Source of the DNA: Escherichia phage UPWr_E2 | DNA: 64,000 nt | Reading direction: 5' to 3' (one strand) | Sequence record: PP418986.1 | Shown here: in pieces, positions 4,679 to 22,164 of the stretch | Numbering within the stretch: the first letter of the stretch is position 1 | How the letters are laid out: every line of letters starts with the position of its first letter | The notes under the pieces: generated by a model | The model's input: only the letters and a program-made list of their open reading frames with translations | The model's database searches: none | What the model was told of the DNA's origin: nothing | Position numbers and translations under genes: made by a program

Positions 4679-7600
4679 TTATTCAATCCACTCAAATTTA
4701 ACAGTTTTATTCACTGGGTCAGGAATAATGCGAACATTACCAATTCGCAAGAAATCGCGAATAGTAAGATTACCTATTATTCCATTATCAGATGGGATCG
4801 CTCCTATATCTGAAGGTTGAGGAGGGTTACCTCCGTCAAATACCTGAACAAAACTTGACCAAGAGTTTTTGGTTTTCTGCCATGTACGTGTCCAGCGAGT
4901 GGTACGTGCTTCTGGGGTCGTTGGATAAGTAATCCAATCTTGGTAAAGTGAATCAAGTGTGTTACCAAACTGAGTCAATGTACCAGGAGATTTAACTTCT
5001 TCACCACGTTCTAAGTATGGAAGTCCAGTCACTTCATTAGTTTTTTCAACCATTTTAAAATAACCCGGGAACTGGTTATAAGTGGCTGAATCATTAATAT
5101 CGATTGACCAGAATCCTACTGTATCAGATGTTGGCGCACGGGTATATAAATCAGAGGTTTTAGTACCCTGAGAACGAATTCTCGAGTTAACAGTCAAACC
5201 ACCCGAACTTATAGTAGCACCTTTTGCAATGATTAAGCTTTCACCAATCGTTACTTGGCCAGATGCATTATTAATAGCTAAAGGACGCAATCCATTAAAT
5301 CCGCCAGTTTGATCACCCGATGCAGTAAGCATAAAATTCGTTACTGACCCGTCATTGCGAACAATGAAACCATAATTTCCGCTAATAGCACGGAAAGCAT
5401 TTGCGCTTCGAGAAATAATTTCACCAGTTGCAGTGACTGAATTACCAAATGTTGCTACACCATTTGCATTCAATGTTCCTGAAGCATTAACATTTATCGG
5501 TGTTACTGTACCGTTGATATTAAATGTTATATTTCCAGCTTTATTACGCTGAGAATAAAAATGACTAGACGTTTCATCACTAACTTCAAATACGGTAGAA
5601 CGTGTTGTGTCTGATTCCCCACTAAACTGATTTCCCCACACTCTGACTGTCATCGTTTGAGCTGGGTTTGTTCCAGTTTGAGGTCCTTTCTCAAAAATCA
5701 GACGAGTTGCCGTTCCAGTATTAGAAATAGTTAATGTACTATTTGCTGAAACTGATCCACCGAATGTAGCAGTACTAGATGATACAAGAGGGGCACTCAG
5801 ATTCGTTTGTTGGGTTAAGGTTAGTGAACCATTAACTGTTTGTGCAATGTCCCTACGAATGAACTGGAGCGAATCTAGACCATCTAATAAATTACTATCT
5901 ACAGCTTTTGCTTTTAATGGCAAATAATTTGCTAATACGCGATTTAATTCATATGGTGATACTGCATAACCATTTTTCTCATATGATTCTAATGGCTGTG
6001 TTGAACCTACCGTATCATTACCAACAAACGTTAATGAACCAGAAGAAGTTTTAACAAACCCTCTTATCAGAGTAGTTGCTGCCCAAGTTGGTTCACTCTG
6101 CACAATCCATTTTAAATTTTTTGGAGATACAGCAGTATTTGCTGACGTTCCAGTCACAGTTTCAGACTGAGTTGCAACTTTAATAACACCTTCTTGCGAT
6201 TCGGTAGATTTAGTACCTAAAAGCTTTTTAGGAGTTATTAAAACATTATCTAATGTTCCTGCAGCAGCTTCAACTTGTGTAGCTACACGAAGTGTACCAC
6301 GCTGTGTCTCATTTGCTTCAAGAATATTAAGGGTATAATGGTCCCAGAGAGTTCCTGATTCAACTAATCCAGATAGAGCAACAACAGAAGTACGATCAGT
6401 ACTATTAAATCTGGTTTTAATTTTTAATGGTGTAGAGATACGAGTATCGTCGACGCCTGCGTCGAATTCAACCTGTGTAGCAATTTCAGCTATACCACTT
6501 AAACTTTCAGTTGCTCTACGGTCATTTAAAGTTTTAGGAGTGACTGCACGAGTATAGTCAGTTCCTGTATTAACTTCACTTTGCGTAGCAATTTCAATTA
6601 AACCAATTCTTCCATCAGTTGATGTCTTTTTATGTAACGTTTCTGGCGTTACAACCGCATTTGCCCATCCTTCTTGGCTTTGTCCAGCAATTACTTCACT
6701 TTCAACTGCTAAAATTACTGCGCCTTGTTGCGTTGGAGTAGCTTTATACTGATCCAAAGCTTTAGGTGAAACAACTAAATTATTAGTGTTTTTATTATAA
6801 ACATTCGTACCATTTAATTCACGACTAGAAGCTGGAGTAGCTCCTGCGGTAGATACAAAAGTTACAATACCCGATAATGTTTCAGAACCTTGACGAGCTT
6901 GAAGCTTTTTAGGAGTGATGATTGTAGTATCATCAGTACCTGTATTAGTTTCCTGCTGCGTAGCAATTTCAGCGACACCTCTGCGAGTTTCTGTAGCAGT
7001 TCTTTCATTCAGCTTTTTAGGAGTGATGATAAGGTCATCTGCAAAAGAGAATGTGGTGTTCTGATTCACTTGAGCAGTAGTTGCTATTCTTGCAATACCT
7101 CTGCGAGTTTCTGTAGCAGTACGATTAGCTAACGTTTCTGGAGTAATTGCCAATTCTTTTTGCGGAGAATTTTCTAAATCAGCATTTGCTTGAGCTTGTG
7201 TAGCTAAAGCAATTACGCCTAATCTTGCTCTAGTAGAATTATTTAAAGAATCGACTCTTTCAACTGTTGGAACGTTTTGCTGTACAACCCAGTATTTTCC
7301 ATCAGAATCTTCTATATAAGCAAGTTGCAAAACTGGTACATAATTAGTTTCACCATTAAAAACTAATTCTTGAACTGTTACCCATTCAGCTTCAGGCGGA
7401 TATTCTGAACGTTTTGGGAATTGCAGCAATTGAACTGAAGAAGCAATTTTATCTTCACCGGCAGCTTTGATTTTAACTGTTTGTCCTTTTCTCATGTAAT
7501 TCATGGAAATTTTAACAGTATCACCAACAGAAATATCAGTCGGAAGCTGAAGTTCAATTGTTTGGGTTGTTCCATTATTCGCGCCAAATACCATGACTTC

Positions 7601-10815: not shown

Positions 10816-11448
10816 ATGAATATAGTATATTGGTTTACATTTGAAGACCGTGTCAAAAATAAGACTCCGCCATACTATTATATCGGTAGTAAATTAAATT
10901 GCTCATTTGAGAACGGAATAATATATGACTCTTCCGGAAAGGAATACTGGAGCTCATGTAAACAAAAAAGATTTTTGAATGCGCTAATGCTTCAAAAACC
11001 GAGCGTTAAAATAATTCAAATTGATGATGACTTGGATGTTATTGAAGCAGAACGAAAATACCAACTTGAAGTAAATGCCAGAGATAATCCAGACTATTTT
11101 AATCTGGTATATGCTGGTGGTGGATTTGGTGTGAGTGGTGAAACTCATCCAGCCAAAGACCCGGAAGTTAGAGAGCATATGAGATTGGCTAATTATATGA
11201 ACCGTGACGATTTTAGACCTTGGAAAACATCACGAGCTAATATAGAGTCTTGGAAATTATCTCATATTGCTTACGAGAATTATGTGTTATTATTATCCTC
11301 TAATCTGTACGGTAAAACTCCTGGATGGCGAAGAGTTAAAGGTAATATAAATATAACTGATACAACTGCTAAATCGATGGTAAAGTATTTCAACTCAGGT
11401 TGGATACCTCTCGAAGACCCAGAGTATTGCGAATTATGCCAGCTATGA
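10816..11448 (+). CDS. segG: free-standing GIY-YIG homing endonuclease, SegG-like
   Basis: 210 aa; N-terminal IVYWFTF...YYYIGSK GIY-YIG motif; sits between 59 and 32 where T4 segG lies. Confidence 0.75.
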   Translation: MNIVYWFTFEDRVKNKTPPYYYIGSKLNCSFENGIIYDSSGKEYWSSCKQKRFLNALMLQKPSVKIIQIDDDLDVIEAERKYQLEVNARDNPDYFNLVYAGGGFGVSGETHPAKDPEVREHMRLANYMNRDDFRPWKTSRANIESWKLSHIAYENYVLLLSSNLYGKTPGWRRVKGNINITDTTAKSMVKYFNSGWIPLEDPEYCELCQL

Positions 11449-14638: not shown

Positions 14639-15186
14639 TGAAACAATACCAATTTTTAATTAAAGATATCCTGGAAAATGGCTACGAAACCGATGACCGA
14701 ACAGGCACAGGAACAATTGCTTTGTTCGGTACTAAATTACGCTGGGATTTAACTAAAGGTTTTCCTGCAGTAACAACTAAGAAGCTCGCCTGGAAAGCTT
14801 GCATTGCTGAGCTGCTTTGGTTTTTATCGGGAAGCACAAATGTCAATGATTTGCGATTAATTCAACATGATTCGTTAATCCAAGGCAAAACAGTTTGGGA
14901 TGAAAATTACGAAAATCAAGCAAAAGATTTAGGATACCATAGCGGTGAACTTGGTCCAATTTATGGAAAACAGTGGCGTGATTTTGGTGGCGTAGACCAA
15001 ATTATAGAAGTTATTGATCGTATTAAAAAATTGCCAAATGATAGGCGTCAAATTGTTTCAGCATGGAATCCAGCTGAACTCAAGCAGATGGCATTACCGC
15101 CTTGTCATATGTTCTATCAGTTTAATGTGCGTAATGGCTATTTGGATTTGCAGTGGTATCAACGATCAGTAGATGTTTTCTTGGGT
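14638..15186 (+). CDS. td: thymidylate synthase, exon 1
   Basis: MKQYQFLIKDILENGYETDDRTGTGT...VDVFLG then in-frame TAA at intron start; 183 codons. Confidence 0.92.
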
Positions 15187-15506
15187 TAATTGAGGCCTGA
15201 GTATAAGGTGACTTATACTTGTAATCTATCTAAACGGGGAACCTCTCTAGTAGACAATCCCGTGCTAAATTGTAGGACTACCCTTTAATAATTTCATCAG
15301 GATTAGTTACTTATCGTGTAAAATCTGATAAATGGAATTGGTTCTACATAAATGCCTAACGACTATCCCTTTGGGGAGTAGGGTCAAGTGACTCGAAACG
15401 ATAGACAACTTGCTTTAACAAGTTGGAGATATAGTCTGATCTGCATGGTGACATGCAGCTGGATATAATTCCGGGGTAAGATTAACGACCTTATCTGAAC
15501 ATAATG
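15187..15506 (+). other. group I self-splicing intron in td, without the I-TevI ORF (320 nt)
   Basis: 5' junction ttgggt|taattgaggcctgagtataagg and 3' junction ...ttatctgaacataatg|ct match the T4 td intron core; only the last ~22 codons of I-TevI remain. Confidence 0.88.
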
Positions 15507-15841: not shown

Positions 15842-16105
15842 ATGATTTTACGATTTAAAGATACTTCTGGTGTAGTTCTTTTTACACTTCCTAACCCAAG
15901 TGAGTTAGAAGTTCCAGGACCAAATCAGCCTATTATCATTTATGGCAAAAAATATTATACTCATAAAATGACTCGTGAGTATTTTGATAATAAAATTTCC
16001 ACAGTTAAAACTTCTTCTGACTGTTACTACGATATTACTGTTTTAACGGAAAAACAATATGCCGAATTATCACCGCGCGGGCCGTCTATGTCGGGTAGTG
16101 AATAA
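15842..16105 (+). CDS. hypothetical protein (87 aa)
   Basis: SD gagga upstream of ATG. Confidence 0.55.
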
Positions 16106-16385
16106 ATACAAATCCGACTTTGATGTTAATATTCACCGTGGTACATTTTGGGGAAATTACGTCGGTAAAGATGCTGGCAGCCGGGAGGCTGCCATTGAAT
16201 TATTCAAAAAAGATTTTATACGTCGAATTAAATCCGGAGAAATAACTAAAGCACATTTAGAGCCTTTACGTGGAATGAGGCTAGGATGCACATGTAAACC
16301 AAAGCCGTGTCATGGTGATATAATAGCTCATATAGTTAACCGACTGTTTAAAGACGATTTTCAAGTTGAGGACTTATGCAATTAA
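16059..16385 (+). CDS. hypothetical protein with [11 protein letters not shown] motif (108 aa; start uncertain)
   Basis: conserved-looking Cys/His motif; overlaps previous ORF by 47 nt. Confidence 0.5.
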
Positions 16386-18640
16386 TTAATGTTATCAAAA
16401 GTAGTGGTGTTTCTCAGAGCTTTGACCCGCAAAAAATTATTAAAGTTTTATCTTGGGCATCTGAGGGAACATCAGTAGATCCTTATGAATTATATGAAAA
16501 TATTAAATCATATCTCCGTGATGGAATGACAACTGATGACATTCAGACTATTGTCATTAAGGCTGCTGCGAATTCTATTTCGGTTGAAGAGCCTGATTAT
16601 CAATATGTAGCTGCACGCTGTTTAATGTTCGCTCTTCGTAAGCATGTTTATGGGCAGTATGAACCACGTTCATTTATTGACCATATTTCTTACTGTGTAA
16701 ATGAAGGTAAATATGACCCTGAATTATTGTCAAAATATTCAGCAGAAGAAATTACATTTTTAGAATCAAAAATTAAGCACGAGCGGGATATGGAATTTAC
16801 TTATTCCGGGGCGATGCAATTAAAAGAAAAATATCTAGTTAAAGATAAAACCACTGGTCAAATTTATGAAACTCCGCAGTTTGCATTTATGACTATTGGA
16901 ATGGCATTGCATCAAGATGAACCTGTTGATAGATTAAAACATGTTATTCGTTTTTATGAAGCAGTATCTACTCGACAGATTTCATTACCAACTCCTATTA
17001 TGGCTGGTTGCCGTACTCCAACTCGGCAGTTTAGTTCATGCGTTGTTATTGAGGCAGGCGATTCACTGAAGTCTATCAATAAGGCTTCTGCTTCAATTGT
17101 TGAATATATCTCTAAACGCGCTGGAATTGGTATTAACGTTGGTATGATTCGTGCTGAAGGTTCTAAGATTGGCATGGGTGAAGTGCGTCATACTGGTGTT
17201 ATTCCTTTTTGGAAACATTTTCAGACTGCTGTTAAATCATGCTCACAGGGTGGAATTCGTGGCGGCGCTGCTACTGCTTATTATCCTATTTGGCATTTGG
17301 AAGTTGAAAATCTTCTCGTTTTGAAAAATAACAAAGGCGTAGAAGAAAACCGCATTCGTCATATGGATTATGGTGTTCAGCTGAATGATTTGATGATGGA
17401 ACGATTCGGAAAGAACGATTACATTACTTTGTTCAGTCCGCATGAAATGGGTGGCGAGCTTTATTATTCTTATTTTAAAGACCAAAACCGTTTCCGTGAA
17501 TTATACGAAGCAGCAGAAAAAGACCCTAATATTCGTAAAAAGCGTATTAAAGCCCGTGAACTATTTGAATTGCTCATGACTGAACGTTCAGGAACCGCAA
17601 GGATTTATGTGCAGTTCATTGATAATACGAATAACTATACTCCGTTTATTCGTGAAAAGGCGCCTATTCGTCAGAGTAACTTGTGTTGTGAAATTGCTAT
17701 TCCAACAAATGATGTGAATAGTCCTGATGCTGAAATTGGATTGTGTACTCTCTCTGCATTCGTACTAGATAATTTTGACTGGCAAGACCAAGATAAAATT
17801 AATGAATTGGCAGAAGTTCAAGTTCGTGCTCTTGATAATCTGTTGGATTACCAAGGATATCCAGTTCCTGAAGCAGAAAAAGCTAAAAAGCGTCGTAACC
17901 TCGGTGTAGGTGTTACCAACTATGCAGCTTGGCTGGCAAGTAACTTTGCTTCTTATGAAGATGCTAATGATTTAACACATGAACTATTTGAGAGATTACA
18001 GTATGGACTCATTAAAGCATCCATTAAGCTCGCCAAAGAAAAAGGACCTTGCGAATATTATTCAGACACTCGTTGGTCTCGAGGCGAATTACCTATCGAC
18101 TGGTACAATAAAAAGATTGACCAAATCGCAGCTCCAAAATACGTTTGTGACTGGTCGGCGCTGCGGGAAGACCTTAAGCTCTTTGGCATCCGTAATAGCA
18201 CATTATCAGCACTTATGCCATGTGAGTCATCTTCCCAAGTTTCTAACAGTACAAACGGTATCGAGCCTCCACGTGGACCAGTCTCTGTTAAAGAATCAAA
18301 AGAGGGTTCCTTTAATCAAGTCGTGCCCAATATTGAACATAACATAGACCTATATGATTATACATGGAAATTAGCTAAGAAAGGTAATAAACCTTATCTT
18401 ACGCAGGTAGCTATTATGCTGAAATGGGTATGTCAATCAGCTTCAGCGAATACATATTATGACCCGCAGATTTTTCCAAAAGGAAAGGTTCCAATGTCAA
18501 TAATGATTGATGACATGCTATACGGATGGTATTATGGCATTAAAAACTTCTATTATCATAATACTCGTGATGGTTCCGGTACTGATGATTATGAAATAGA
18601 AACTCCAAAAGCCGATGATTGCGCAGCGTGTAAATTGTAA
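16376..18640 (+). CDS. nrdA: ribonucleotide reductase large subunit
   Basis: 754 aa, matches T4 NrdA from memory. Confidence 0.95.
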   Translation: MQLINVIKSSGVSQSFDPQKIIKVLSWASEGTSVDPYELYENIKSYLRDGMTTDDIQTIVIKAAANSISVEEPDYQYVAARCLMFALRKHVYGQYEPRSFIDHISYCVNEGKYDPELLSKYSAEEITFLESKIKHERDMEFTYSGAMQLKEKYLVKDKTTGQIYETPQFAFMTIGMALHQDEPVDRLKHVIRFYEAVSTRQISLPTPIMAGCRTPTRQFSSCVVIEAGDSLKSINKASASIVEYISKRAGIGINVGMIRAEGSKIGMGEVRHTGVIPFWKHFQTAVKSCSQGGIRGGAATAYYPIWHLEVENLLVLKNNKGVEENRIRHMDYGVQLNDLMMERFGKNDYITLFSPHEMGGELYYSYFKDQNRFRELYEAAEKDPNIRKKRIKARELFELLMTERSGTARIYVQFIDNTNNYTPFIREKAPIRQSNLCCEIAIPTNDVNSPDAEIGLCTLSAFVLDNFDWQDQDKINELAEVQVRALDNLLDYQGYPVPEAEKAKKRRNLGVGVTNYAAWLASNFASYEDANDLTHELFERLQYGLIKASIKLAKEKGPCEYYSDTRWSRGELPIDWYNKKIDQIAAPKYVCDWSALREDLKLFGIRNSTLSALMPCESSSQVSNSTNGIEPPRGPVSVKESKEGSFNQVVPNIEHNIDLYDYTWKLAKKGNKPYLTQVAIMLKWVCQSASANTYYDPQIFPKGKVPMSIMIDDMLYGWYYGIKNFYYHNTRDGSGTDDYEIETPKADDCAACKL

Positions 18641-19371
18641 TGAATTATCAAAAAATCTATAACGACCTAATTTCCCGAGCTCAGGCTCGGGAATCTTTAC
18701 TAGAATATAAAGAGACACATCATATAATCCCTAAATGTATGGGAGGTTCTGATGATAAGGAAAATTTAGTTGAATTAACAGCCAGAGAACATTTTATAGC
18801 TCATCTATTACTATGTAAGATAAATGAAGGCCATTTTGGTCTTGCCTCTGCGTTAACGTTGATGGCAACAGATAAAGCTGGCAATAGAATTAATAACAGA
18901 TTGTACAGCTTACACAGAAAATTATTTGCTAAAGCTAATTCTGAGTTCTTTAAGAAATATTGGAAAAATAATCCTCATCCTAAAGGGATGCTAGGCAAGC
19001 ATCATAAAAACGAAACTAAACAGCATGTATCTAACGTGAATAGATATGCGTGCCCATCTGTAGAAATACATAAATTCTCATTAGATGGGGATTTCATAGA
19101 AACCTTTCACTCTATTGCGGCAGCGTCCCGGTCAGTTAATGGAAACGGGTCAAATATCAAATATTGTGCCGAGGGTAAATTTCAATATGCTTATGGATTT
19201 AGATGGTCATATCAACTTGATGCAAAGTTTGACAAAATAAAACCAAGAGATTATAAAGGAATCCGCGGTAAGAAATGGATTAATAATGGAAGTGAATGCA
19301 CGCTTATAGGTAAAGATGATATTATACCGCCAGGTTGGAAACGCGGCAGAATTTTAAAGAGGAAAAATTAA
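18640..19371 (+). CDS. mobE: free-standing HNH homing endonuclease, MobE-like
   Basis: 243 aa; HHIIPKCMGGSDDKENLVELTAREH HNH motif; between nrdA and nrdB; TAATG overlaps at both ends. Confidence 0.8.
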   Translation: MNYQKIYNDLISRAQARESLLEYKETHHIIPKCMGGSDDKENLVELTAREHFIAHLLLCKINEGHFGLASALTLMATDKAGNRINNRLYSLHRKLFAKANSEFFKKYWKNNPHPKGMLGKHHKNETKQHVSNVNRYACPSVEIHKFSLDGDFIETFHSIAAASRSVNGNGSNIKYCAEGKFQYAYGFRWSYQLDAKFDKIKPRDYKGIRGKKWINNGSECTLIGKDDIIPPGWKRGRILKRKN

Positions 19372-20549
19372 TGTCTACAGTTTTTAATACAAATCCAGTT
19401 GATGTTTTAAAAGAACCTATGTTTTTTGGTTCAGGTCTTGGTATTGCGCGTTATGATATTCAACGTCATAAAGTTTTTGAAGATTTAACCGAAAAGCAGT
19501 TGTCATTTTTCTGGCGTCCTGAAGAAGTAAACTTAATGATGGATGCTGCACAGTTTAATAAGCTTCCTCAGTACCAGCAAAATATTTTTACTAACAACCT
19601 GAAGTATCAATCACTTTTAGATAGCATTCAGGGTCGTGCGCCGTCTGCTGTACTTATGTCATTAATTTCAGACCCAAGTCTTGATACATGGGTTGCTACA
19701 TGGACTTTTAGTGAAACTATTCACAGTCGTTCATATACTCATATCATGCGAAATCTTTATACTGATCCATCGAAGGTATTTGATGAGATTGTATTAGATG
19801 AAGCTATTATGAAACGTGCTGAATCCATTGGACGTTATTATGATGATGTTCTGATTAAAACTCGTTATTGGGAAAACGCTAAAGCTGATATCGAATACCA
19901 AAAAGAAATTAATGCAGACGAAGACGTTATTGAAGATGCTATTGAGCATGAGACATATTGGAAGCGTGAGCTAATGAAATCTCTTTACCTCTGTTTGCAT
20001 GTAATCAACGCATTGGAAGCTATTCGTTTTTATGTATCTTTTGCATGTACCTTTAACTTCCATAAGAACATGGAAATCATGGAAGGTAATGCCAAGATTA
20101 TGAAGTTCATTGCACGCGATGAACAGCTTCACCTTAAAGGCACCCAATATATTATTCGTCAACTTCAACTTGGCACTGACGGCGATGAATGGGTTAAAAT
20201 TGCTCAAGAGTGCGAGCAAGAAGCAGTTGATATTTTCATGGAAGTTAACCGCCAAGAAAAAGATTGGGCAGTTCATTTATTTAAAGATGGCGATGTTCCT
20301 GGATTAAATACAAATAGCATGTGGAGCTTTATTGATTACTTAACTGTATCTCGTATGAAACAGTGTGGTCTTCCATGCCCGATTACCGATGCTCCGGTTA
20401 AACATCCATATCCTTGGATTCGTGAATACCTTAATTCTGATAATGTTCAATCCGCGCCGCAAGAAGTAGAACTGTCATCTTATCTTGTTGCACAGATTGA
20501 TAATGATGTTGATGATAAAGTTATGATGAGTTTTAAAAAATACTTTTAA
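19371..20549 (+). CDS. nrdB: ribonucleotide reductase small subunit (uninterrupted)
   Basis: continuous 392-aa ORF from MSTVFNTNPV...; track ORF starts 12 codons earlier at a non-ATG codon. Confidence 0.92.
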   Translation: MSTVFNTNPVDVLKEPMFFGSGLGIARYDIQRHKVFEDLTEKQLSFFWRPEEVNLMMDAAQFNKLPQYQQNIFTNNLKYQSLLDSIQGRAPSAVLMSLISDPSLDTWVATWTFSETIHSRSYTHIMRNLYTDPSKVFDEIVLDEAIMKRAESIGRYYDDVLIKTRYWENAKADIEYQKEINADEDVIEDAIEHETYWKRELMKSLYLCLHVINALEAIRFYVSFACTFNFHKNMEIMEGNAKIMKFIARDEQLHLKGTQYIIRQLQLGTDGDEWVKIAQECEQEAVDIFMEVNRQEKDWAVHLFKDGDVPGLNTNSMWSFIDYLTVSRMKQCGLPCPITDAPVKHPYPWIREYLNSDNVQSAPQEVELSSYLVAQIDNDVDDKVMMSFKKYF

Positions 20550-20553
20550 GGAG

Positions 20554-20576
20554 TGGGCCGCAAGGCCCATTTTATT
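20554..20576 (+). terminator. hairpin with GCAA tetraloop plus U-run after nrdB
   Basis: tgggcc-gcaa-ggccca then ttttatt. Confidence 0.65.

Positions 20577-22164
<1,588 letters not shown>

Follow-up and report, generated by a model that had tools for sequence, protein, structure and literature searches.

An RB3-type mobE gene beside an intron-free nrdB in Escherichia phage UPWr_E2

The only MobE characterised experimentally is that of bacteriophage T4, which is genetically mobile and loses its nicking activity when residues 33-62 are deleted (PMC2790892). Both nicking, with a site mapped in nrdB, and preferential inheritance in crosses were reported for this T4 allele, and a hairpin inside T4 mobE terminates about 30% of transcripts (PMC2790892), an internal 5′ terminator hairpin being reported in all mobE carriers. 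The stop codon of nrdA and the start codon of mobE overlap as TAATG in T4, for which translational coupling has been proposed (PMC2988022). T4 itself has been described as an oddity with 15 homing endonucleases, and in T-even phages the free-standing enzymes are more widespread than the intron-encoded ones (PMC2988022). The neighboring nrdB gene of T4 carries, as the initial annotation of the present DNA stated, a group I intron with I-TevIII; the intron measures about 598-600 nt and its I-TevIII is defective. I-TevIII from RB3 has a zinc-finger DNA-binding domain and acts as a dimer, its cuts falling 14 and 16 bp upstream of where the intron inserts (PMC1865063).

Layout of the nrdA-mobE-nrdB locus

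We analyzed a stretch of 64,000 nt from Escherichia phage UPWr_E2 (PP418986.1), hereafter the window, in which the locus has the following features.

16376..18640, + strand: nrdA, large subunit of the aerobic ribonucleotide reductase (754-aa ORF; Pfam ATP-cone, Ribonuc_red_lgN and Ribonuc_red_lgC, E 5.6e-137)
18638..18642, + strand: TAATG of the nrdA stop and mobE start (TAA 18638-18640 overlaps ATG 18640-18642, read off the sequence)
18640..19371, + strand: mobE, assigned as the RB3 allele of a free-standing HNH homing endonuclease gene (243-aa ORF)
19369..19373, + strand: TAATG of the mobE stop and nrdB start (TAA 19369-19371 overlaps ATG 19371-19373, read off the sequence)
19371..20549, + strand: nrdB, small subunit, uninterrupted (392-aa ORF; Ribonuc_red_sm, E 1e-36; no Rfam intron)

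ORF coordinates and sequence agree with the initial annotation in placing an HNH ORF between nrdA and nrdB with TAATG at both ends, and together with Rfam they locate this ORF outside any intron, its start overlapping the nrdA stop. The mobE/nrdB TAATG junction is common to the window and RB3; in RZ, CF1 and Melville the two genes overlap instead by 4 nt, probably ATGA judging from their nrdB starts. Over this stretch the DNA is 100% identical to that of Yersinia phage PYps55T (MT515756.1), whose record lists the ORF as PYps55T_064, ‘homing endonuclease’.

Positions 18640-19371 very probably hold the RB3 allele of mobE as an intact gene for a free-standing HNH homing endonuclease, in its usual Tequatrovirus home between nrdA and nrdB and next to an nrdB that is intron-free like most. 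What the sequence comparisons show is the anatomy, motif conservation, purifying selection, presence or absence among near-identical genomes and the fixed position across genera.

In JB75, a phage of the same species, a 51-nt nrdA-nrdB spacer replaces the 730-nt insert (window 18641-19370), nrdA columns 800-2139 being almost identical and the nrdB stretch 98.3% identical between the two. The gene is likewise missing from T2 and RB14, and such sporadic presence at one fixed site is a signature of homing. In four further T4-like lineages (RZ, CF1, Melville and Vibrio phage PVA8), homologues with 50-73% identity fill this nrdA|nrdB junction beside an uninterrupted nrdB, and the gene is present at the one junction in five genera or lineages.

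The MobE protein and its two halves

Two motifs were located in the predicted protein.

18709..18804, + strand: HNH catalytic motif, residues 24-55 (KETHHIIPKCMGGSDDKENLVELTAREHFIAH; Pfam HNH, PF01844, 19.7 bits, cutoff 21.4)
19078..19170, + strand: NUMOD1 motif, residues 147-177, in the putative DNA-binding half (Pfam 25.9 bits, cutoff 22.8)

The window MobE shares 97% amino acid identity with RB3 MobE over all 243 residues and matches PHROG 655 ‘homing endonuclease’ (E 3.2e-57). Residues H27, H28, P31, G36, N42, E50, H51 and H55 are invariant in an alignment of 46 homologues, and a PDB sequence search aligned the motif, marginally (E 0.092), to the solved HNH domain of a group II intron maturase. 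The AF2 model (pLDDT 90.9) places a strand-strand-helix arrangement at residues 25-61.

Comparison with T4 MobE gave 62% identity over residues 1-105 (BLASTP, E 8e-40) and about 93% over residues 1-55, which include the HNH motif and span most of the segment corresponding to T4 residues 33-62. Only the first 55-60 residues or so match well; identity falls after about residue 57, and BLASTP detected no significant similarity between the two proteins beyond about residue 105. The T4 C-terminus harbors NUMOD3 repeats and a CxxC element, whereas the window protein has NUMOD1 and a different C-terminus. The original designation ‘MobE-like HNH endonuclease’ was right about a free-standing, MobE-related gene, but the allele is that of RB3, and in its C-terminal half it bears no relation to T4 MobE.

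A Pfam HNH score below threshold could be taken as a sign that the ORF is the inactive, decaying relic of a homing endonuclease, all the more as in vitro activity of T4 MobE could not be demonstrated (PMC2790892). This reading is scarcely credible given that none of the three carriers translated (RB3, RZ and CF1) has a truncated ORF, that the allele-specific mobE DNA is covered to at least 80% in 54 of 56 records, and that the model is confidently predicted. Relative to RB3, the sole comparison made, mobE shows 22 synonymous and 8 nonsynonymous differences (dN/dS 0.08), and amino acid conservation extends over the full length in Gaprivervirus RZ and Moonvirus CF1 (66-73%). From this ratio and the invariant HNH residues, the window ORF does not look catalytically dead.

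Intron-free nrdB and the other homing elements

Two further positions bear on the intron content of the phage, the second given for context only.

20046..20047, + strand: empty insertion site of the T4/RB3 nrdB group I intron, within the Cys226 codon (T^GT), placed from BLAST breakpoints and flanks against T4 and RB3
15187..15506, + strand: td group I intron without an I-TevI ORF (320 nt; Rfam RF00028, 66.9 bits)

The initial description of nrdB as one continuous ORF (19371-20549) proved correct: Rfam at gathering thresholds found no group I intron in nrdB, its sole match in the whole 64-kb window lying in td (15177-15458). Alignment to T4 nrdB, which had been suggested as a check, located the empty intron site at T20046/G20047. 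The window coding sequence runs unbroken across 20046|20047, and 111 nt there are identical to intron-less JB75.

The other homing elements were also as initially described. The td intron is without its endonuclease, being 696 nt shorter than the I-TevI-bearing form, and what remains of it can still be aligned with the 3′ end of the I-TevI region. Neither segD nor segE occurs in the identical record of PYps55T, gene 23 adjoining gene 24 and inh adjoining uvsW, and a homing endonuclease gene is kept at the segG position between gene 59 and gene 32.

What had been made of these facts was an ‘unusual combination’, a special state in which a T4-like ancestor selectively lost its intron endonucleases and kept mobE and segG. 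The td intron has clearly lost I-TevI, as the 696-nt deletion and the matching 3′ remnant attest, which favors such a history, but the survey of relatives makes it very improbable. An intron-free nrdB occurs in 42 of 53 phage records with the RB3-type mobE allele (34 distinct phages), the I-TevIII intron in the other 11 (9 phages, including the six near-identical RB3/5/6/7/9/10), and mobE adjoins an intron-free nrdB in T6 as well. The DNA of the T4 nrdB intron is matched by 191 records (118 at ≥80% coverage) versus about 933 matching nrdB. Moreover, at least four sequenced phages share exactly the same set of an ORF-less td intron, an RB3-type mobE and an intron-free nrdB, the empty site and its surroundings match JB75 with no scar, and it is T4, not its relatives, that has been described as the outlier (PMC2988022).

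T4-like nrdB genes are generally intron-free, so the layout of mobE beside an intron-free nrdB is ordinary: it is already sequenced, annotated and usual among relatives, and no special cause has to be sought for the missing nrdB intron. The words ‘retained’ and ‘lost’ imply a T4-like ancestor that is not evident. Since the same-species phage JB75 has neither mobE nor the td intron, gain of these elements by homing is at least as likely as retention and loss. The reference frame is thereby corrected: T4 is an outlier in its load of homing elements, and T4 introns or seg genes missing from a relative are no signal. As a discovery the locus carries little weight, being part of a deposited, annotated phage genome with a common gene arrangement.

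Expression, target site and related systems

Expression and targeting were considered from three further features.

18672..18703, + strand: terminator-like hairpin in the mobE 5′ end (TTCCCGAGC TCAG GCTCGGGAA, then TCTTTACTAG; terminator scan, 9 pairs, 6 G-C)
18613..18640, + strand: last ~28 nt of nrdA in the mobE-linked form (..KADDCAACKL*; ..KAEDCSSCKL* in mobE-less phages)
19492..19496, + strand: equivalent of the T4-MobE nick site (nrdB nt 122-126, codon 42 = AAG), in the T2-like, mobE-less form, identical to JB75 and T2

The mobE hairpin proper (18672-18693) has a stem-loop identical in T4 and RB3. A search for a MotA-box middle promoter within mobE (18640-19371), such as T4 has in the 3′ end of its mobE, found no GCTT(A/T)A core with a -10 match; the MotA pattern is weakly enriched in the window as a whole (16 found versus 10.4 expected). 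The sigma-70 promoter scan of positions 16000-21200 returned 22 matches against 20.8 in shuffles, which is no excess. By eye, a weaker CGCTTAT...TATTAT is visible at about 19301-19325; we did not count it as evidence.

These elements bear on a different reason for the persistence of mobE, namely its wiring into nrd expression instead of homing: the gene would be coupled at both ends, its terminator would set the nrdA:nrdB ratio and its deletion would be harmful. TAATG at both ends and the conserved internal hairpin are what this predicts, and Wilson and Edgell argued that T4 mobE is protected from deletion by selection on the regulatory elements it contains (PMC2790892). We consider it unlikely as the main cause of retention, because it leaves unexplained a dN/dS this low along the whole protein and the invariance of the catalytic residues across the homologues, because JB75, T2 and RB14 express nrd with the 51-nt spacer and no mobE, and because the MotA-box search within the window mobE was negative.

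Under the homing endonuclease reading, which we prefer, we infer nuclease activity, mode of expression and target site. By analogy with the work on T4 mobE, the gene, for which no separate promoter is obvious, probably owes its transcription to read-through from nrdA, its translation is probably coupled at the TAATG overlap, and its transcript level is probably held down by the 5′ hairpin terminator. The protein would combine an N-terminal HNH nuclease module with a C-terminal DNA-binding half containing NUMOD1, in a modular arrangement like that of I-HmuI. In a mixed infection with a relative carrying the 51-nt spacer, MobE would nick or cut near the nrdA-nrdB junction; the recipient would then acquire mobE, along with short flanks, as the damage was repaired by recombination with the mobE+ genome.

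Concerning the site of cleavage, codon 42 of nrdB is CGG, the protective form, in T4 but the T2-like AAG in the window, as in all five RB3-type carriers examined. The phage would therefore nick itself if its MobE had the specificity of T4 MobE. The nrdA tail follows mobE, with DDCAAC in seven mobE+ phages (window, RB3, T4, T6, RZ, CF1 and Melville) and EDCSSC in three mobE- phages (JB75, T2 and RB14). A scan of IMG/VR for discordant pairs of nrdA tail and mobE matched the mobE+ pattern in 0 contigs and the mobE- pattern in 3; Tequatrovirus contigs were few there, and the pattern fixed TGT where the window has TGC. Because the RB3-type enzyme and T4 MobE have unrelated C-terminal halves, the former may have a different target site, and the AAG kept by RB3-type carriers together with an nrdA tail that tracks mobE presence points the same way. 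Hitchhiking is another possible cause of the co-variation of the tail, as is loss of the middle promoter of nrdB, which mobE-less phages keep in the nrdA 3′ stretch (PMC2790892). If the target does differ, ‘mobE’ would denote a set of alleles with swapped DNA-binding modules, united by a common nuclease head and insertion site.

Among solved structures, the best match to the AF2 model is I-HmuI from Bacillus phage SPO1 (PDB 1u3e; Foldseek probability 0.97), with a weak global fold match (TM 0.22-0.29, E 3.7e-3, 12% identity). In both, the HNH domain is N-terminal and an extended DNA-binding region bearing NUMOD-type elements comes after it, but I-HmuI is intron-encoded and the window mobE is free-standing. 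I-TevIII, an HNH enzyme acting on nrdB in the same phage group, is likewise intron-encoded and is absent from the window.

The closest relatives remain the MobE alleles themselves. T4 mobE shares with the window its insertion site, the nrdA 3′ end, the start overlap and the internal terminator hairpin. In T6 (MH550421; AY262134.2) mobE also lies between nrdA and an intron-free nrdB, with an identical nrdA 3′ end and N-terminal HNH module, but its product has 213 aa and a T4-like NUMOD3 C-terminus. RB3 (AY262130.2; KM606994, RB3_226) has the TAATG junctions with both nrdA and nrdB found in the window, and differs in that its nrdB contains a group I intron with an intact I-TevIII. The name MobE thus stands for one shared nuclease head combined with at least two unrelated DNA-binding modules, so that the nick-site result from T4 should not be carried over to the RB3-type allele without a test.

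The nrdA–mobE–nrdB locus

The window has the sequence of a T4-like phage (Tequatrovirus) and runs antiparallel to the T4 map; its genes at the locus follow the order td, nrdA.2, nrdA.1, nrdA, HNH ORF, nrdB, denA, rnlA and alc. The initial annotation had described a MobE-like HNH gene wedged between nrdA and an intron-free nrdB with a TAATG at each end. Direct reading of the TAA and ATG positions at both junctions established that both overlaps are real.

Features of the locus in the window
16376-18640, nrdA
18638-18640 (TAA) and 18640-18642 (ATG), nrdA stop/mobE start overlap (TAATG), read directly from the sequence
18640-19371, HNH ORF (mobE), 243 aa
19369-19371 (TAA) and 19371-19373 (ATG), mobE stop/nrdB start overlap (TAATG), read directly from the sequence
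19371-20549, nrdB, 392 aa, single ORF
Between T20046 and G20047, empty nrdB intron site in the Cys226 codon, from the alignment to T4

The continuity of nrdB was confirmed. With curated thresholds over the whole 64-kb window, Rfam detected no group I intron in nrdB, its sole group I intron lying in td (15177-15458, 66.9 bits). Alignment to T4 nrdB, as the initial annotation had proposed, located the empty site at a clean break where T4 holds about 600 extra bases; this is the I-TevIII intron, whose I-TevIII is defective in T4. Over the 111 nt around the empty site, the window does not differ from JB75, a phage of the same species without mobE, whose nrdB is intron-less.

Several observations concern the flanks of nrdB. 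Its first codons (19371-19379) read ATG TCT ACA in the window and RB3, versus ATG AGT/AGC ACA in seven others compared, and the serine codon varies together with the junction type (TAATG versus the ATGA read for RZ, CF1 and Melville). Between nrdB and denA, a G+C-rich hairpin (TGGGCC GCAA GGCCCA, then TTTTATT; 20550-20580) is missing from the terminator scan list; JB75 has an annotated rho-independent terminator at the equivalent place. The denA product (endonuclease II, 20577-20987) carries a GIY-YIG domain (Pfam E 4.8e-6); its start is either the upstream GTG 20553 of the ORF list or the ATG 20577 of the annotation of Yersinia phage PYps55T.

Distribution of mobE and of the nrdB intron

PYps55T (MT515756.1, species Tequatrovirus ecombl75) contains the whole 1910-nt stretch at 100.0% identity and has the same ORF annotated as 'homing endonuclease'. 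The HNH protein is 97% identical to the annotated mobE of phage RB3 (AY262130.2, KM606994). The feature was correctly described but is ordinary and already deposited.

The combination had been presented as unusual, unless T4-like nrdB genes generally lacked the intron; the latter was found, and the combination is not unusual. A search with the allele-specific part of mobE (18810-19368) gave matches in 56 phage records, and in 54 of these the identity was 95-100%. When this part plus nrdB served as the query, 53 records aligned over the full length: nrdB was contiguous in 42 (34 distinct phages), and the match was split by the ~1.09-kb I-TevIII intron in 11 (9 phages, six of which form the near-identical RB3/5/6/7/9/10 set). 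The T4 nrdB intron DNA matched 191 records (118 at ≥80% coverage) and nrdB about 933, rough counts that include RefSeq/GenBank duplicates and some distant matches. Although rough, their direction is clear, and T4-like nrdB genes are mostly intron-free. In the classical phage T6, mobE likewise adjoins a contiguous nrdB. Four further lineages (Gaprivervirus RZ, Moonvirus CF1, Salmonella phage Melville and Vibrio phage PVA8) carry homologues of 50-73% identity at the same nrdA|nrdB junction, and their nrdB too is uninterrupted. T4 itself, with 15 homing endonucleases, is called 'an oddity' in a review (Edgell and colleagues, PMC2988022).

The remaining elements of the combination were also recovered. 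The td group I intron (15187-15506, 320 nt) lacks the I-TevI ORF and is missing 696 nt relative to the usual form. It is not unique: of the roughly 210-230 phage records that have a td intron, 16 show the same deletion junction, and four of these 16 (PYps55T, 101112UKE3-1, SYGD1 and U115) also have RB3-type mobE and an intron-free nrdB. JB75 lacks the td intron altogether. By the PYps55T annotation, a homing endonuclease gene occupies the segG position between gene 59 (helicase loader) and gene 32 (~10816-11448 in the window, excerpt 177-809), and segD and segE are absent, gene 23 abutting gene 24 and inh abutting uvsW. Both features fit the picture of T4 as an outlier in homing endonucleases.

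Integrity and mobility of mobE

A catalytically dead ORF, the other possibility raised initially, was not upheld. Pfam HNH scored 19.7 bits, just under its threshold of 21.4; NUMOD1 was above threshold and PHROG 655 'homing endonuclease' matched at E 3.2e-57. Twelve residues (M1, Y7, E25, H27, H28, P31, G36, N42, E50, H51, H55 and L57), the catalytic ones included, are invariant in an alignment of 46 homologues reaching down to 34% identity, and comparison with RB3 gave 22 synonymous and 8 nonsynonymous differences (dN/dS 0.08). The AlphaFold model built on this alignment was confident (pLDDT 90.9), and in it residues 25-61 form the strand-strand-helix core of the HNH motif. Its best fold match, I-HmuI of Bacillus phage SPO1 (PDB 1u3e), had a probability of 0.97 but an E of 3.7e-3 and a low TM, in line with what an extended protein of several domains should give. 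The ORF does not look dead. It is an RB3-type mobE that apparently encodes a functional homing endonuclease and occupies the standard site, next to nrdB in its common intron-free form.

JB75 has a 51-nt spacer in place of the 730-nt insert of the window. The two are almost identical over nrdA columns 800-2139 and 98.3% identical over the nrdB stretch, and their differences are concentrated in the final 126 nt of nrdA. Only the last ~28 nt (18613-18640) follow mobE presence across phages: the NrdA redox tail is DDCAACKL in seven carriers from several genera (window, RB3, T4, T6, RZ, CF1 and Melville) and EDCSSCKL in three mobE-less Tequatroviruses (JB75, T2 and RB14). Co-conversion, target-site immunity, hitchhiking or middle-promoter loss could account for this co-variation; in mobE-less phages the nrdB middle promoter lies in the nrdA 3' stretch (PMC2790892). 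A second nonsynonymous cluster in nrdA versus JB75 (18515-18545, MLYGWYYGI versus LLYFWYFGG) is common to RB3, T4 and the mobE-less T2, and is therefore a separate polymorphism without strict linkage to mobE.

In the opposite flank, the window and JB75 have the same nrdB sequence for at least 250 nt, starting at codon 3. The T4 MobE nick site was mapped at nrdB nt 122-126, codon 42 (PMC2790892), a codon that is the T2-like AAG in all five RB3-type carriers and CGG in T4 only. The RB3-type enzyme may have a target differing from that of T4 MobE, which would agree with the difference between their DNA-binding halves, or it may be tolerant of its own site.

Comparison of MobE alleles

The T4 reference record (NC_000866) lists mobE (141 aa) and nrdB.1 (83 aa) as two genes, while resequenced T4 strains encode one 232-aa MobE overlapping nrdB by 4 nt. 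The reference (excerpt 6717-7417) and the resequenced T4T (excerpt 1334-2032) differ by 2 nt, and the split looks like a frameshift artefact.

'MobE-like' holds for the N-terminal part of the characterised T4 enzyme, with ~93% identity over residues 1-55 and weak similarity up to about residue 105, but not for the C-terminal half, where no similarity to T4 MobE was found beyond about residue 105. The C-terminus is NUMOD3-type in T4 and T6; that of the window and RB3 carries NUMOD1, with a different tail. All mobE alleles have in common the nrdA 3' end, the start overlap and an internal hairpin (18672-18693 in the window), which in T4 terminates ~30% of transcripts (PMC2790892).
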